A DNA stretch of 64,000 nt from an uncultured Candidatus Saccharibacteria bacterium (GCA_964505635.1 CAZDIP010000001.1:222412-286411), one strand, 5' to 3'; positions 7,215 to 57,838 are shown, numbered from the stretch's first letter. Program-made: numbers and translations. Notes: generated by a model from the sequence alone, not told the origin.

Positions 7215-7304
7215 AAAAGCATTATATCAAATATCAATAAAAACAACGATGGGCATTTTCTGTTTAAGCAGAAAATGCCCATCTGATATAAAGCTAAAAA
7301 TAGG

Positions 7305-9008
7305 TTAGACGATTGCCTCTAAATGACCTTTGCGTAATTTTTTTAATGCGCTTAAGGTATTTGCTTCCTCTAAAATCTTTGCCAAATGCAGGCCGCCAAT
7401 AAAGTGAGGGGAAAGTACATAGTCAACACCGTTTTCGTACAGGTACTTGCTTTCAAAATCGTTTTGCGCTGTAAAAATTGTCTTAGGCTTTCTTGGATAT
7501 TGCTTCAAAGCTGCCAAAAGACTCAGGTTATCGTCTAAGTCAGGTACGGTAGATATAATTAATTTTGCCTTATTTAAATTGATCTGTTCTTGAATATATG
7601 GATCGGCAATATCTCCGCAAATAGTAGTTATGCCCGCAAGCTCGTGTTTTAGAGCAATGTGAGGATCAAAATCTACCACAACGAGCTTATGGCTTTTGCT
7701 GCTTAACTCGTGCAAAAATCTGCTGCCTAGACGATTAGCACCCACTAAAATAACATGGCTTTTGAATCCGTCCTCATTAAAAAATTTTTCGGCATTACCA
7801 TTCCCAAAATTAAACCATCTCAAATACGGATGTAAAAAATTATATAAAGGCTTAGTGTACAAAATCATATAGGAAGAAACAGCCATTGTAATTAGACCTA
7901 TAATGGTTATCAGCCCCAAAATATCCCCGGAAACATGGCCGAGACGGTTGGCCAAAGCAATAACCACAAAGCTAAATTCACTAATTTGAGCTGTTGTAAC
8001 AGCAGCAAAAAAAGATGTTCTGGGTGTATAGCCTAAATAACCCATAATCAACATCATTAAAAAGGGCTGAACGAGTATTACAAACAAACTGAAAATCACG
8101 GCCGGCAAAAGCATAGACAACACTCCGGCAAAAGCCAGCTTAGTACCGAATACAATAAAAAATAAGATTAAGAAAAAATCCCGCAAATACTTTATGCGAG
8201 CAGAAATCTCATAATGAACCTGTGTGCTAGCCAAGCTTAAGCCAGCAACAAAGCCCCCAACTTCCAACGAAAACCCAACGGCTGGAAAAGACATAAAAGA
8301 GGCAAGGCCCAAAGCCCAGGCCAAAGCAAAAATCATAAGTAGTTCATCTGACTGGCCGAACCTGTTTAAAAATTTAGGCATTACTTTTTTACTTATCCAT
8401 GACAAAAGTAAGACTAAAATCAAAACCTTAACGCTCATAGCGAGTAAATACTGCCATGTGGGAAGACTTCTAAAAATATCAACCCCCATTTCATGCCCAC
8501 CGGCCCCGCCCAAAAACAAAAGGATAGCCAAAGCTGCAAAATCCTGAATGATTAAAAATCCTACTGTAATTCTGGCATATAAACTTTGTAAATCCTTTTT
8601 ATCCGAAAGTAATTTAACAACAATAATTGTTGAGGAAAAAGTGAGTGCGATGGCTATGTACCAAGCCGTAACATTTGAAAAACCAAAGGCAAGGCTTATT
8701 AAATAACCCAAAGCCGCAGTTAAAACCATGTGCCCTATGCCTGTATAAATCGCCACCTTACCCAATTGGCGAATTCGTTTTATATCCAATTCCAAGCCGA
8801 CCATAAACAGCAGCAAAGTTATGCCGATTTGCCCCAGTGAATCCAATACTTCCTTATGTTCAAGCTGAATATACCCCAAAGGCCCGACTATAAGCCCGGT
8901 TAAAATAAAGGCTATAACACTGGGTTGCTTAAGCCAGCTTACCAGCACGGCAATTAAGCCGGCCAAAACTAAAACCCCGGTAATTTGATAAAAAATAGTT
9001 TGATCCAA
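7305..9008 (-). CDS. Cation:proton antiporter (CPA2/Kef-type) with C-terminal RCK/TrkA-N domain
   Basis: About 12 TM helices, then a Rossmann-like HVILVGANRLG segment. Confidence 0.8.
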   Translation of the reverse strand: MDQTIFYQITGVLVLAGLIAVLVSWLKQPSVIAFILTGLIVGPLGYIQLEHKEVLDSLGQIGITLLLFMVGLELDIKRIRQLGKVAIYTGIGHMVLTAALGYLISLAFGFSNVTAWYIAIALTFSSTIIVVKLLSDKKDLQSLYARITVGFLIIQDFAALAILLFLGGAGGHEMGVDIFRSLPTWQYLLAMSVKVLILVLLLSWISKKVMPKFLNRFGQSDELLMIFALAWALGLASFMSFPAVGFSLEVGGFVAGLSLASTQVHYEISARIKYLRDFFLILFFIVFGTKLAFAGVLSMLLPAVIFSLFVILVQPFLMMLIMGYLGYTPRTSFFAAVTTAQISEFSFVVIALANRLGHVSGDILGLITIIGLITMAVSSYMILYTKPLYNFLHPYLRWFNFGNGNAEKFFNEDGFKSHVILVGANRLGSRFLHELSSKSHKLVVVDFDPHIALKHELAGITTICGDIADPYIQEQINLNKAKLIISTVPDLDDNLSLLAALKQYPRKPKTIFTAQNDFESKYLYENGVDYVLSPHFIGGLHLAKILEEANTLSALKKLRKGHLEAIV

Positions 9009-13738: not shown

Positions 13739-14000
13739 AAAACCAAAAGACCCCGGGATTTTAACTGTAAGTCTACAGTAAAAACCCTGGGGTCTTGGAT
13801 ATAAGACCAAGACGTTTCCGTCCCAGTTCACTTAAGTGGCTCTAGAACACTTAAGTCTTTTTATGCTTTTGTCTCAAACTCCTTAGATTGGTTGTCTAAG
13901 TAGTAACGTTTGAAGAACTGAAAAAATTATAACATAAGCCAAAATAGCTGACAAGCTAAGATTTCCACAACTGGTAAAAAATATTGATTTATAAAAACTA

Positions 14001-38384: not shown

Positions 38385-39521
38385 ATGCAGCCGCTTGCCA
38401 ATAAAATCCGTCCCACATCACTGGATACTTACATTGGCCAGGAACATTTAGTGGGGGGAGGGAAACCTTTAAAGCTTGCTATAGAAAACAAGCATCTTTT
38501 TTCATTTATTTTGTGGGGACCTCCGGGGGTAGGTAAGACCACTTTGGCTAGAATATATGCTAAGGCGGTTAATGCGGAGTATCACGAACTTTCTGCGGTT
38601 TCAGCGGGCAAAGATGATATTAGAAAAATTGTGGAAAAACCGCCTATGCTGAGTCAGCCAAAGATTTTGTTTTTAGACGAAATCCACCGCTTCAACAAAG
38701 CCCAGCAGGATTTTTTACTACCCTTTGTGGAAAAAGGGGACTTGTATTTAATTGGCGCGACCACTGAAAACCCAAGCTTCGAAGTTATTCCGGCTCTGCT
38801 TTCCCGTTGCCGTGTGTTTGTGTTAAATGAGCTAAATGATGAAGAAATAAAAAAAGTCATAGAGTCCGCAAATCTAAAGATTAATAAACAATCAAAGGAA
38901 TGGCTTATTGCCATGGCAAATGGCGACGCCCGTCAGGCGCTGACAGTTATTGATAATTGCCAAGAGCTGTACGGCGAAATAAATTTAGACAATTTAAAAA
39001 ATACCCTTCAGTCTAAATTTCTGCGCTACGACAAGGCCGGGGAAGAACACCATAATACCATTAGCGCGTTTATAAAATCTATGCGCGCCAGCCAACCCGA
39101 CGCGGCGCTTTACTATTTGGCTCGTATGGTAGAGGCGGGGGAAGACCCTTTGTTTATAGCCAGGCGTATGGTGGTGTTTGCCTCAGAAGATATAGGCCTT
39201 ATTCAGCCAACGGCTTTGGTAGTGGCTAATGCGGTATTTGAAGCGTGTCAAAAAATTGGCTATCCCGAGTGCGCCATAAATTTAGCTCACGGCGCAGCCT
39301 ACCTGGCAAGCTGTAAAAAAGACCGCTCCAGTTACGAGGCTTATTTAAAAGCCTTAGATGATGTTAAACAATACGGCAACTTACCGGTACCTCTAAACAT
39401 AAGAAACGCGCCCACCAAGCTTATGAAGGAATTAGGTTATGGCAAGGGCTATGAAAAATACCCCGAAAACAATAATTATCTCCCCGAAAAACTTAAAGGG
39501 GAAAAATATTTAAAACCTTAA
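38385..39521 (+). CDS. rarA: Replication-associated recombination protein A (AAA+, MgsA/RarA), short form
   Basis: [19 protein letters not shown] start, Walker [21 protein letters not shown]-terminal MgsA domain ([13 protein letters not shown]). Confidence 0.9.
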
Positions 39522-39527
39522 GCTTAA

Positions 39528-39563
39528 TTCGACTGGACAATTCGCGCGAATTGTCCAGTCGAA
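39528..39563. repeat. Perfect 36-bp palindrome
   Basis: TTCGACTGGACAATTCGC|GCGAATTGTCCAGTCGAA, starting 7 nt after the rarA stop. Confidence 0.9.
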
Positions 39564-39576
39564 AATCCATAAAATT

Positions 39577-39616
39577 AAAACGCCCGATTTATACTCTAGA
39601 CATAACGGGCGTTTTA
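39577..39616. terminator. Terminator-like hairpin (large loop)
   Basis: AAAACGCCCG / CGGGCGTTTT 10-bp stem with a 19-nt loop and A/T runs on both sides. Confidence 0.5.
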
Positions 39617-39636
39617 ATCAGGTTTACTCTGGATTC

Positions 39637-39664
39637 CGGCCTTCCGCCGGTTGGCGGAAGGCCG
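39637..39664. repeat. GC-rich 12-bp hairpin
   Basis: CGGCCTTCCGCC-GGTT-GGCGGAAGGCCG. Confidence 0.8.
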
Positions 39665-39815
39665 CGGGATGACATGTTGGCCTTGAATTACGAAACTCAA
39701 TATTGTTCGACTTTCCGCCAAAGGCGGACAGGTAAGGAGAATGATATCGAGTAATTAAGCCAAAATTTTAGATTCTCCACAAGTTCGAAAACTAAAATTT
39801 TTCTGTTTCGTGTAT

Positions 39816-41306
39816 TTAACCCCTAGGCTGACTTAAAGGCATTGGCTGGCCCGGGTCTATAACAGAGGGTTCTTTAATTAATTCTTTAATTAAAGGTACA
39901 ACAACCGAGGAGCGGTAAGAAGGAAAGTCAGTAGGTGCATCTAAAATAGGGAAGACTAAAGCCGGCACTAAAATTTCATAGCCCTCTTTACCCGGTTCAT
40001 TTTTCCACATTTTCATTAACTCTCTTTTGGGCGTGCCTAGTTTTAGTGTCGTCCCAGGCGCGGAATTTTCGTAATACGGGTAATAAATATTATTGCCGCC
40101 GGCTTCCGCGATTTTTAGAATTCTTTCCCAGTTAGTTTCAGCCGGATATTCGGAAGATTCGTAAACCTGGTTATAAAGTTCGTAAACCCCGGAAACTTTT
40201 TTTACTCTGGCATTTACGCTCACCATAAGCCCGCTTATGTTGCCTGACTGGTCGTAAGCGGTTTGGCCGTTTATAACAACCGGGTAAATAACCGTTAAGA
40301 CATCGGGTATCCAGGCTACAGATTTGTCCGGCGCAATTTGGTAATCCCTAAACCACTGTTTTTGCACCACAGATTTGCCGTAACCGCTTTTGTTAATGCC
40401 GTATTGGCTTAAGAAGCCATCGGCAATCGCAATTGTTTCTTCGTCGGAAGGTAGCTCGGAAATATTCAGTCGGTAGCGGTTATAGCAAGCTTCGTCCTGG
40501 CACATTCTGTCCGGTGTCTGCCATCTAAACCAATTTTCGTTTATATTAACACTACCTTCCTTAAAATTGAGGTTAACCATATACCCGAAATCCCTGTCCT
40601 CGGTTAAAGTCAGCATTTCTATATAAGGATTTTGCAAATTTTTAAGGTTAAATGCCGGTACAGAAAAATTCTTTACTATAGAAGCTAAATTTGGGTTTGA
40701 ACCAAAACCTTTTACGCGGCGCATAACTGCCAAATTCTCGTCCTCAAGTTCAACTTTTTCGCCCGCGTACGCAAATTTAAAATTATCGTACACCGGCAAA
40801 ATAGACATATCACCCCCGCCGCCGCTTTGCGGTCTGGCCTTTAAAGCTCCGTCAGATACGGCCGCTGTATTTTGCGCAAAACCGCCTCCGCCTCCTACGC
40901 CCCCTCCGCCCAGACCTTCACGCCCTCCGCCCGGGACTAATTCAGCCAATGAACCAAAAGCTAAAGGTTGTAATTTTGCACCTTTCTCTGCCGCGTACTC
41001 ATAACCGATATTTTTATTTTGTAAGTAGTTTACCCCGGCAATAACCGCTATAGCCAGTACGGCAAAAGCCGGTACTAAAAATTTAAAGCTAAAACGGCTG
41101 GTATTTGCCGCCCTTTCGCCAGAAAGCTGTTCGGCTTTAAGTAAAATTTTCCTGCGCAGAATTTCCGCGAAAATTGGGTCAAACTTTGTATCAGGTGCGC
41201 TTTTAAGCATTTGGCTTAACAGATCTTTTAATTCATTTTCATGTTTCATAAATTCAGAATCGTAATTATACAATTCCTGTAAGATTTGATTAACTTTCTC
41301 GTTCAT
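39816..41306 (-). CDS. Putative anti-sigma factor-like membrane protein with Gly-rich linker and large extracytoplasmic domain
   Basis: Lies downstream of the ECF sigma gene. One TM helix near residue 75 and a GGGREGLGGGGVGGGGG tract. No catalytic motif. Confidence 0.4.
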   Translation of the reverse strand: MNEKVNQILQELYNYDSEFMKHENELKDLLSQMLKSAPDTKFDPIFAEILRRKILLKAEQLSGERAANTSRFSFKFLVPAFAVLAIAVIAGVNYLQNKNIGYEYAAEKGAKLQPLAFGSLAELVPGGGREGLGGGGVGGGGGFAQNTAAVSDGALKARPQSGGGGDMSILPVYDNFKFAYAGEKVELEDENLAVMRRVKGFGSNPNLASIVKNFSVPAFNLKNLQNPYIEMLTLTEDRDFGYMVNLNFKEGSVNINENWFRWQTPDRMCQDEACYNRYRLNISELPSDEETIAIADGFLSQYGINKSGYGKSVVQKQWFRDYQIAPDKSVAWIPDVLTVIYPVVINGQTAYDQSGNISGLMVSVNARVKKVSGVYELYNQVYESSEYPAETNWERILKIAEAGGNNIYYPYYENSAPGTTLKLGTPKRELMKMWKNEPGKEGYEILVPALVFPILDAPTDFPSYRSSVVVPLIKELIKEPSVIDPGQPMPLSQPRG

Positions 41307-41443
41307 AAAATTATTTAGTTATTTTGAATTATAAAACCTATGACTTCTTGATTTTAACCACTCCGAACGGAGTGAGGAGTCTCTTGCAAAAGCAATTCTT
41401 CGCTTCGCTCTGAATGGTTTTATGATTCAATTTAAATTAATAT

Positions 41444-42010
41444 TTAGGTTATCGGTTTTACTAGCAACAAATAAAGTAAAGCCATGGGCACTTTAGACTG
41501 TAAAAATTTTAAACTTCGACCAAACTGCATTTTACTCGCCGCTTCGCTCTTGCCCAAAATTTCGGCAATTTCCTTAAAGCTTAAGCCGTCCCACACACGC
41601 ATTATAATTAAATCCCTTTGTTCGCTGTCTAACGTGTCGAGCAATTTTTGCACCTTTTCCATTTCCATTTTAATACCAACCTCTTTGGAAATATTTTGGG
41701 AAGACGGATGACCTAACGCATCATCAATAGGGGATTGGTCCTTATTGGAGCGAAAATGATCAAATAGGGTGTTTCTGGCAATGGTGTAAAGCCAGGTGTT
41801 AAAAGCGCTTTTTTTTGGATTATAGCTTTGAATTCTTTCCAAAGCCTTCATAAACACCACGCTTGTTAAGTCTTCGACGGTTTGCTTATGCTGGGTGCGA
41901 TAATAAAGAAAGTCATAAATTTTCTTTACATAAGCGTCATAAATAACCTCAAATTGCCCTAACTGCCCCTTTTGGCAGCTAATAATTGCCTCATTTATAC
42001 TGGAATTCAT
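41444..42010 (-). CDS. ECF-type RNA polymerase sigma-70 family factor
   Basis: Region 2 (FNTWLYTIARNTLFDHFR) and region 4 HTH (LSFKEIAEILGKSEAASKMQ). Confidence 0.85.
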   Translation of the reverse strand: MNSSINEAIISCQKGQLGQFEVIYDAYVKKIYDFLYYRTQHKQTVEDLTSVVFMKALERIQSYNPKKSAFNTWLYTIARNTLFDHFRSNKDQSPIDDALGHPSSQNISKEVGIKMEMEKVQKLLDTLDSEQRDLIIMRVWDGLSFKEIAEILGKSEAASKMQFGRSLKFLQSKVPMALLYLLLVKPIT

Positions 42011-42126
42011 ATTTTTTTAGACTTATAATCTTGCAAGTATTATAGCTCATTTTCTTGTGTTAACAGTAATTTATACGCTAAAATTAGTAAAAAGTAACAT
42101 TTTTATTAGCATCCGTTTAGAGCCAT

Positions 42127-45059: not shown

Positions 45060-46088
45060 ATGAAAAAATTAAAAAAGCTATTGGAAACCTTTAACTATCA
45101 ATTACCAAAACAGTTAATTGCCCAAAAACCGACTGACCCACGCGACAGCGCAAGGCTTTTGGTATATAACAGATCGCTAAATACAATACAGTTCGATACT
45201 TTTTTTAACCTGCATAAATATTTACCAAAGGGTGCGGTTTTGGTATTTAACCAAACCAGAGTAATACCGGCCCGCTTGCCTTTATACAAACAAACCGGGG
45301 GCAGGGTAGACACTCTATATATAGGTCATGATAAAAAATACCTAAAAGTTTTAGCCAACAAAAATTTACCCATTAAAACAAAACTTCACATAGCTCGCGG
45401 CCGCGAGCTATGTGAAGTGGTAAAAAAACATAAAGGCACTTATTTCCTAAAGCCGAGTTTAAAAATTTCTGATTTTAAGATTATAATTTCTAAATATGGG
45501 CTTACCCCGCTGCCGCCGTATATAAAAAACTCACCCTTAACGGAAAAACAAAGGCGTAGCGCTTACCAAACAATGTTTGCTAAATCAGGGGCGTCTGTAG
45601 CAGCCCCGACTGCCAGCCTGCACTTCACTCCCAGAGTAGTTAAAAAACTTAAACAAGCAAAAATTGACCTTAAATTCGTAAGGCTGGACGTTAATTTAGG
45701 AACTTTCGCGCCGCTTAAAGAAAGCCAAATAAAAAACAAAAAACTTCATTCAGAAAACTATTTTATAGACTTAAAAACCGCAAAATTTATTACAAAGGCA
45801 AAAAAGCAGGGACGGCCTATAATTGCGGCAGGTACGACTGTAGCCAGAACTTTGGAAACCTACACTTTAAACAAACAACTTTCCGGCTCAACAGAACTTT
45901 TCATTCGTCCTCCTTACCAATTTAAAATAGTTGACGGGCTTATAACCAATTTTCATGTACCCCAAAGCAGCTTACTAATGTTAGTCGGAGCATTAATAGG
46001 AAAAGATAAACTACTGGAAATTTATGGGTTGGCAATAAAAAATAGATTTAGATTTTTTTCTTTTGGTGATGGTATGTTAATAATTTAA
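45060..46088 (+). CDS. queA: S-adenosylmethionine:tRNA ribosyltransferase-isomerase
   Basis: YQLPKQLIAQKPTDPRDSARLLVY start and C-terminal FFSFGDGML. Confidence 0.9.
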   Translation: MKKLKKLLETFNYQLPKQLIAQKPTDPRDSARLLVYNRSLNTIQFDTFFNLHKYLPKGAVLVFNQTRVIPARLPLYKQTGGRVDTLYIGHDKKYLKVLANKNLPIKTKLHIARGRELCEVVKKHKGTYFLKPSLKISDFKIIISKYGLTPLPPYIKNSPLTEKQRRSAYQTMFAKSGASVAAPTASLHFTPRVVKKLKQAKIDLKFVRLDVNLGTFAPLKESQIKNKKLHSENYFIDLKTAKFITKAKKQGRPIIAAGTTVARTLETYTLNKQLSGSTELFIRPPYQFKIVDGLITNFHVPQSSLLMLVGALIGKDKLLEIYGLAIKNRFRFFSFGDGMLII

Positions 46089-57386: not shown

Positions 57387-57430
57387 CAAGCTAATCTCAT
57401 TTACCCATATAGCTTTAATGTTAAATATAT

Positions 57431-57454
57431 ACCGACCCTTTTAGGGTCGGTTTT
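57431..57454 (+). terminator. Rho-independent terminator
   Basis: ACCGACCC-TTTTA-GGGTCGGT stem followed by TTTT. Confidence 0.7.
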
Positions 57455-57838
57455 AATTTAAAAGAAAACTCCCCTGTTTAATCTACCAAAAAGGGGAGAG
57501 CAATACACATATGCGATTATTTATTTAATTTGTACTTTTAAATTTGCACGATAAAGAATTTTAAAAAGTAAATACTTATTATTTACTTTAATAACTAAAA
57601 CTAAAATAGGTGGTATTCATAAAACTGATAAATAATAATATCAATTAAAAAAGTTTAAGTTGCTTAATAGGCGAATGCTTATCTTAATTATAAGCACATT
57701 GATACCAGTTAATATGACAAGAGTAAAATCTTTATATTATATTCTATGTCGCACAAGGTACATTGTGCGACATAATAGATATTTCAAAATTTGCTTTTCC
57801 CCACCCAGCTTTGTTTAGCTGGACTTTACTTCACCTTA

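Follow-up and report, generated by a model that had tools for sequence, protein, structure and literature searches.

We found that the spacer between rarA and the gene that converges on it contains two conserved non-coding elements, a perfect palindrome (P1) and a two-tier hairpin (H2), which together form a module of ~95 nt next to rarA. To the reading that two converging transcription units share this spacer as their 3'-end region, with RNA structures set back-to-back, we give even chances. The window referred to below is the whole stretch of 64,000 nucleotides that was analyzed. The features of the locus, in window coordinates, are as follows.

38385 to 39521, + strand: rarA/mgsA (Pfam MgsA_C, AAA_assoc_2, AAA, and RuvB_N)
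39528 to 39563, no strand assigned: P1, a perfect 36-bp zero-spacer palindrome, TTCGACTGGACAATTCGC followed directly by GCGAATTGTCCAGTCGAA
39564 to 39573, no strand assigned: A-rich linker between P1 and H2, from the alignments
39574 to 39618, no strand assigned: H2, with outer stem ATTAAAACGCCCG/CGGGCGTTTTAAT, bidirectional terminator-like
39637 to 39664, no strand assigned: hairpin 3, a 12-bp stem of 83% GC with loop GGTT and no flanking U tract
39714 to 39728, no strand assigned: hairpin 4, TCCGCC-AAA-GGCGGA, scored as direct repeat D6 and inverted repeat I10
39736 to 39801, no strand assigned: weak AT-rich pairings in the proximal 3' UTR of the 496-aa gene
39816 to 41306, - strand: 496-aa gene, an open reading frame (ORF) with no Pfam or NCBIfam match, downstream of the ECF sigma gene
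41444 to 42010, - strand: ECF-type sigma gene, heading the operon that would end at H2

Gene coordinates and protein-family matches agree with the original prediction that the spacer is flanked by rarA, whose product is replication-associated recombination protein A, and by a convergent gene. An exact look-up returned no identical sequence on record for the window's RarA, and its homologues place the window in the Patescibacteria, where it is Paceibacteria-like. The convergent 496-aa protein has 96 homologues, Patescibacteria-type wherever a source is named, and searches of metagenomes gave it no confirmed match. Its gene always lies directly downstream of an ECF sigma gene and is anti-sigma-like by position only. 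Between the two convergent stop codons there are 294 nt, compared with 10 to 52 nt in most other convergent pairs of the window, which bears out the claim of a long spacer; P1 begins 6 nt past the rarA stop codon. The spacer is also as unusually structured as had been proposed. Four of the 26 perfect stems of at least 10 bp in the whole window (versus 1.35 in shuffles) lie inside these 294 nt, and compared with shuffled sequence the spacer folds with z scores of -10.3 on the - strand and -8.4 on the + strand. Reading of the sequence and a repeat finder recovered all five of the structural elements originally listed, each in its place. The rise in GC content that had been pointed out is real but modest (50 to 53% over 39600 to 39750 versus 39% overall), and the word TTCGACT is indeed repeated, at 39528 and 39706, at a level no different from chance (294 nt should contain ~2.6 pairs of identical 7-mers). 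The observation about the spacer is real and non-random. The sole other long convergent spacer of the window, 452 nt at 57387 to 57838, contains large imperfect palindromes at 57414 to 57468 and 57731 to 57788 and a perfect 12-bp hairpin at 57745 to 57774.

We recovered syntenic relatives via both flanking proteins (loci L001, L081, L082/L083, L205, L206 to L209, and L211); their RarA orthologues are 76 to 90% identical. In all of these relatives, an ECF sigma gene and a gene of ~495 aa converge on rarA across a long spacer, which measures 294 nt in the window, 458 nt in L001, 235 nt in L081 and L206 to L209, 200 nt in L082, and 188 nt in L211. At L212 and L213, where RarA is slightly more distant, queA follows rarA directly and the module is absent. 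That the elements might be unique and not conserved, the outcome named at the outset as a refutation, is not what we observed: P1 is kept at the locus in four lineages and H2 in five. At four-fold degenerate sites of rarA and the 496-aa gene, identity between the window and each relative is no more than 34 to 45%, and because neutral sites are thus saturated, P1 and H2 are under strong constraint. When P1 and H2 were examined together in the five lineages, 91% of cells were paired, versus 29 to 47% when the 3' partners were slid. Four of the 34 pairs are altered on both sides and 20 are invariant; 18 of 500 shuffles reach that count. Since the pairs are mostly invariant, the main signal is sequence conservation and not covariation. 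A covariance model of P1 plus H2 detected orthologous sites only, across ~1 Mb of related loci; neither 79 further rarA loci nor the remainder of the window nor the more distant loci L215 and L216 yielded a match. The term "repeat cluster" does not fit, as we found P1, H2, and hairpin 3 in single copy, both in the window and across the ~1 Mb of related loci.

H2 had been described as a 10-bp stem that is terminator-like on both strands. The element is present, with 19 nt between its arms, but its perfect stem is 13 bp long, not 10 bp. Its terminator-like character in both directions holds, as a U run follows it on each strand (the U-rich tract is CGGGCGUUUU on + and UUUUAAUUUUAU on -). Within the outer arms, an inner 5-bp stem (39589 to 39593 with 39601 to 39605) closes a 7-nt loop (39594 to 39600), which reads CTCTAGA on the + strand and UCUAGAG on the - strand, the sense strand of the 496-aa gene. 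A simple terminator scanner misses H2 only because all 19 nt enclosed by the outer arms are taken as loop. In five of five lineages, H2 nevertheless has the makeup of an intrinsic terminator, with a stable GC-containing stem-loop and a U tract directly 3' of it at the end of a transcription unit. Its order of A run, GC stem, and T run is that of the window's other gene-end palindromes, and all five lineages have both H2 and the A-rich stretch preceding it. Both partners are altered in two of the stem pairs, and hardly any change is seen in the apex TATGCTCTAGA(A)CATAA.

The inner stem of H2 pairs fully only on the - strand (-19.4 versus -17.1 kcal/mol), where it is closed by a G.U pair that becomes an A.C mismatch on the + strand. 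At L215 and L216, homologues of ~494 aa, 35% identical to the 496-aa protein, are again paired with an ECF sigma gene, adjacent to it or overlapping it. At each of these loci, one bidirectional terminator hairpin lies 28 to 43 nt after the homologue in a convergent spacer of 85 or 62 nt, and the terminator loops on the gene's sense strand are GCUAGAG and UCUAGAG, giving the motif nCUAGAG. The tetranucleotide CTAG is ~3.8-fold underrepresented in the window (60 observed versus 226 expected from base composition), with similar values in the relatives, and CTAGAG plus CTCTAG were seen 7 times versus 26 expected. Over both strands of the ~1 Mb of loci (~2 Mb of strand) there are 147 CTAGAG sites, or ~7e-5 per position. 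For any one 7-nt loop, the hexamer would be expected with a probability of the order of 1e-4, and it was seen in three independent lineages; on these sequence counts, it is unlikely that the CUAGAG loop is shared by chance. Because the loop motif follows the gene family and the G.U pairing favors the - strand, we regard H2 as the terminator that the ECF sigma operon had ancestrally, able to work in either direction. We rejected a general family of hairpins with CTAGAG loops, which are only ~3-fold above composition-matched hexamers, most of the other cases being intragenic. One further hairpin in the window, at 13826 to 13852 on the - strand (ACTTAAGTG-TTCTAGAGC-CACTTAAGT), carries a UCUAGAG loop motif like that of H2; it is intergenic, with a functionally uncharacterized gene on each side, and overlaps the predicted GTG start of a 263-aa gene.

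P1 is perfect, as originally claimed, with 18-nt arms that are 100% complementary and no spacer. Its conserved 28-bp core, ACTGGACAATTCGCGCGAATTGTCCAGT (39532 to 39559; half-site, ACTGGACAATTCGC), is identical at 28 of 28 positions in the window, L082, and L205/L211, which represent three lineages. Outside the core, the outer 4 bp are altered symmetrically in L082, where the palindrome grows to 44 to 48 bp, and a 3-nt indel distinguishes the outer arms in L211. In L081 and L206 to L209, both arms match those of the window at 17 of 18 positions and are separated by a 31-nt central insert, which folds as an extension of the stem. P1 has been lost from L001 and is therefore dispensable. L001 is the closest relative by 496-aa identity; at 7275 to 7445, ~270 nt with a 56-aa ORF (MSEKNPHYPEIHNPYPKK...) that has no Pfam match occupy the position of P1, and a possible degraded remnant of the right arm follows the ORF.

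The sequence next to P1 differs among lineages. In the window, no U tract follows P1 on either strand (GUCGAAAAUCCAUAAAA comes next on + and UUAAGCUUAAGG on -), and for this reason the window's P1 does not qualify as a canonical intrinsic terminator. The L082 version has TTTTTT behind it, and the terminator scanner flags it as intrinsic in the sense direction of rarA; in L211 it is followed by TTTTT, which comes close to the U-tract criterion. The linker to H2 varies in length from 10 nt in the window to ~27 nt in L082, and a conserved stretch, ATAAAATTAAAAC, leads from it into H2. Neither the 36-mer nor the 14-mer half-site has another copy in the window with up to 3 mismatches (P1 copies expected in shuffles, 0). 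Metagenomes scanned with the 14-nt half-site, too short a pattern, yielded at least 120 single matches attributable to chance, and only one of these contigs, L168 (Ga0209459_10028620), had both P1 arms. At 2319 to 2484, L168 has three direct and three inverted units of ~16 nt (ACTGGACRAnTCGCG) with a spacer of ~55 nt. The units equal the P1 half-site, and the contig looks non-coding, a repeat array; the match is probably coincidental, with a foldback- or iteron-like array.

The remaining elements lie toward the 496-aa gene. Hairpin 3, with its 12-bp stem and GGTT loop, and hairpin 4 were both present exactly as predicted, and hairpin 4 is a shorter copy of the core of hairpin 3 (TTCCGCC-loop-GGCGGA). 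The fifth element, GGAGAAT (39736 to 39742) with ATTCTCC (39772 to 39778), exists as a weak pairing of 7 bp around a 29-nt loop; the same region, 39736 to 39801, also pairs AAAATTTTAG with CTAAAATTTT over 10 bp with a 20-nt loop (inverted repeat I8). Hairpin 3 is found nowhere else in the window when up to 3 mismatches are allowed (0 expected in shuffles), and L001, L081, L082, and L211 have unrelated hairpins at its position. The hairpins found at the position of hairpins 3 to 5 include two common to L001 and L081 and two different ones common to L082 and L211. The grouping of all five elements as one unit thus does not hold, since conservation of hairpins 3 to 5 does not extend even to the closest relatives. 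Hairpins 3 and 4, which lie in a patch richer in GC, resemble a local duplication.

We compared the spacer with known classes of element. The candidate non-coding RNA does not belong to a known family, as Rfam 15, run on the whole window, gave no match in the spacer at gathering thresholds; under permissive settings, the best scores on the spacer were 11 to 21 bits versus thresholds of 40 to 330 (E of at least 0.1). A tRNA and tmRNA scan found none in the spacer. No sigma-70-like promoter was found in the window spacer or in the spacers of three relatives, in a phylum whose promoter types may differ. The 67-aa ORF annotated across the spacer (39551 to 39754) is spurious, as had been suspected: no protein family matches it, and lineages differ in its frame owing to a 1-nt indel within the conserved apex of H2. 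Its equivalents in the relatives have TTG starts only, are 30 to 67 aa long, and have no Pfam match. Collections of viral contigs, phages, and plasmids gave no real match, and our literature search on P1-type sequences and Patescibacteria palindromes found nothing relevant. A promoter between P1 and H2, picked out by eye as TTGTCC...TAAAAT, was rejected, with a spacing of 13, 21, or 22 nt depending on the lineage. An ECF promoter within P1 was rejected as well, as the operon's own autoregulatory-type motif, TTGTTAC-N16-CGTATAAT, differs and nothing similar occurs in P1 or H2. This conserved ECF-type motif lies upstream of the sigma gene in L001, L081, L082, L206, and L211; the window's version is TGTTAC-N17-CGTATAAA, at about 42060 to 42095 on the - strand. 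A second conserved element, ATGAGYTATAATACTTGCAAG, follows the promoter motif in six of six lineages.

In the reading that we prefer, two transcription units share a 3'-end region. Transcripts of the ECF sigma/496-aa operon, read on the - strand, would end at H2, which could additionally stop rarA transcripts on the + strand by way of CGGGCGUUUU. P1 would be the first structure reached by rarA transcripts. In L082 and L211, the U run behind it would make it a canonical terminator; in the window, it would be a 3'-UTR hairpin ahead of H2 that may serve as a pausing site, as protection against 3' exonucleases, or as a site of double-strand-specific processing. The stretch from 39619 to 39815 would hold lineage-specific 3'-UTR hairpins of the 496-aa gene, expanded here by a duplicated GC-rich hairpin. 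We infer that the elements act as RNA, with termination as their function, and that there is some reader of the conserved P1 stem and CUAGAG loop. Termination alone leaves the constraint unexplained, because ordinary terminators do not keep a 28-nt stem or a 7-nt loop unchanged over such divergence; the frozen P1 stem and conserved CUAGAG loop show an extra, sequence-specific constraint.

Known systems offer partial parallels. Like bidirectional Rho-independent terminators, H2 has a GC-rich stem with an A run and a T run and lies between stop codons; unlike them, it has a two-tier stem and a 7-nt CUAGAG loop conserved at 35% protein identity. The window's P1 differs from these terminators in having no U tract. 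In phage lambda, sib-mediated retroregulation depends on an RNase III hairpin in the 3' UTR, and P1 resembles sib as a long, perfectly paired hairpin just after a coding region, before or overlapping a terminator. Its helix of 16 to 18 bp (up to 22 to 24 bp in L082) approaches the length that RNase III cleaves, and in geometry alone, as a perfect 3'-UTR helix of 16 to 22 bp, it would suit such a role. However, RNase III substrates do not require conservation of the stem sequence, unlike P1.

An alternative that we regard as doubtful is that P1, and maybe the H2 apex (TATG-C-TCTAGA-CATA), is a duplex-DNA site for a dimeric protein, such as a transcription factor, a roadblock, a nucleoid protein, or a site-specific recombinase of the Xer/dif type (11-6-11). 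The dyad of P1 is perfect, and its core is kept in sequence beyond what pairing needs; moreover, at other Patescibacteria loci (L028 and L054), long palindromes without a spacer occupy operator-like positions and form two-copy families. The position of P1 argues against such a site, as it lies downstream of both genes with no promoter-like site nearby in any lineage, and there is no second copy in 64 kb. Among the protein-family matches of the flanking genes, the sigma factor is the sole DNA-binding regulator, and its ECF promoter motif differs from P1. A recombinase site would fit insofar as two 11-bp arms and a 6-bp center can be read in the 28-bp core. However, P1 bears no likeness to the dif consensus (...ATAA-N6-TTAT...), and we rejected dif and the terminus on further grounds: the GC skew is negative on both sides (-0.02 to -0.12) with no change of sign, which speaks against a terminus, and varies near the locus only as a local gene-strand effect at 30 to 40 kb; P1 is lost in L001, and its arms are split in L081 and L206 to L209. 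That 31-bp separation would abolish any fixed-spacing dimer or recombinase site. Because the insert extends the stem while the arms remain 17/18 identical, a hairpin fits better than a dimer-binding duplex. P1 is likewise similar to REP/BIME palindromes and operators in its (near-)perfect dyad and intergenic position in a compact genome, and it differs from them in being single-copy across the sequence searched, downstream of both neighbors, without a promoter, and tolerant of a 31-nt central insertion.

We think it rather unlikely that P1, the linker, and H2 make up a small RNA (sRNA) of ~95 nt, processed from the rarA 3' UTR or transcribed from the + strand on its own, in which the conserved loop or linker would pair with a target. 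Its layout does resemble that of 3'-UTR-derived sRNAs, with a 5' hairpin, a conserved AU-rich linker (ATAAAATTAAAA), and a terminator with a U tail. The non-coding stretch is strongly conserved, its fold is stable (z of about -7.9), and the conserved 7-nt loop could serve as a kissing or seed element. However, no upstream promoter-like element is present in four lineages, the linker ranges from 10 to ~27 nt, P1 is missing from L001, and no Rfam family matches. Conservation is highest in the paired stems and not in single-stranded, seed-like parts, and the motif in the H2 loop goes with the gene of the opposite strand. The architecture allows a 3'-UTR-derived sRNA, for which we found no positive support. 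A slim chance is left for functionless relics, either mobile or repeat remnants (REP/MITE-like or an insertion hot spot) or by-products of template-switch "correction." Long perfect palindromes number 49 per ~1 Mb of Patescibacteria loci, some in small families, and the P1 position took insertions in two lineages (31 nt of the L081 type and ~270 nt with a 56-aa ORF in L001). The apparent local duplication of hairpins 3 and 4 in a GC-richer patch would fit such an origin, as would a palindrome inside queA (see below) that stays perfect through symmetric changes, as arm-to-arm homogenization would give. Against relics, P1 and H2 are positionally orthologous and exceed neutral sites in conservation by far, neither a transposase nor terminal repeats lie nearby, the viral, phage, and plasmid collections held no match, and in the test for REP/MITE-like elements, the 36-mer, the 14-mer half-site, and hairpin 3 were each found once in the 64-kb window. 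The relic explanation is plausible for hairpins 3 to 5 only.

Across 0.99 Mb of Patescibacteria loci, we counted 49 long perfect palindromes (arms of at least 14 nt and a loop of at most 4 nt), or ~1 per 20 kb. Many are terminators with an A run and a T run, and some are zero-spacer palindromes in operator-like positions or in two copies; P1 belongs to this recurrent and probably mixed class. A special tendency of rarA to be followed by palindromes was rejected as unconvincing, with 8 of ~80 lineages having one within 150 nt versus ~5% for an average gene end, about twice as many. Two-copy perfect zero-spacer palindromes of 34 to 60 bp occur in L028 (7238 to 7275 and 10810 to 10843) and L054 (4753 to 4812 and 6690 to 6739). 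They are mostly intergenic, some just upstream of genes, which suggests operator- or REP-like elements; to our knowledge, such elements have not been described for Patescibacteria.

A second perfect 36-bp zero-spacer palindrome, KLHIARGRELCEV, lies in frame within the window's queA (45060 to 46088, + strand) at 45383 to 45418. The L082 version (1588 to 1625) is still perfect; its six substitutions form three symmetric pairs, several of them non-synonymous. The palindrome is a perfect 38 bp with different arms in L001 (11660 to 11697), 20 bp in L213, and imperfect in L081, and all versions center on the Gly-Arg codons ACGG|CCGT. This pattern points to selection on a putative intragenic hairpin or to arm-to-arm homogenization, and it is arguably more surprising than the finding in the spacer. 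Elsewhere in the sigma operon, the ECF sigma gene is separated from the 496-aa gene by a 137-nt spacer (41307 to 41443, - strand) that is nearly identical in L001 (9132 to 9268) and L081 (3864 to 4000) and contains the hairpin CCTCACTCCG-TTCG-GAGTGG.... The two genes are 18 nt apart in L082 and overlap in L215. The 137-nt spacer is possibly a structured leader controlling the anti-sigma-like gene.

Genomes of the Candidate Phyla Radiation are small and have little spare intergenic DNA, and we know of almost no exploration of their cis-regulatory RNA and DNA elements. The locus provides two conserved non-coding elements without an Rfam family, P1, whose 28-bp core is frozen amid saturated neutral sites, and H2, whose loop hexamer holds the genome's most avoided tetranucleotide, kept across homologous operons at 35% protein identity. 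The perfect palindromes of the phylum are probably a mixed class, one that annotation pipelines ignore. Speculatively, and with only a small probability in our estimation, P1, the CUAGAG-loop H2, and the queA palindrome might be parts of one undescribed Patescibacteria mechanism. In such a mechanism, long perfect hairpins, some of them intragenic, would be read in a sequence-specific way by a hairpin-binding protein or a double-strand-specific nuclease, and selection would keep them perfect through symmetric substitutions, even ones that change amino acids. The CUAGAG loop would mark the operon's 3' end for a specific factor, which might, for example, link envelope-stress signaling to regulated termination or to protection of the 3' end. 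If these elements are merely robust terminators, the locus is a clean case of convergent-gene insulation in these genomes. If a factor does read the loop or the stem, it would give a new handle on the control of transcript ends in ECF sigma operons, in organisms not yet grown alone.
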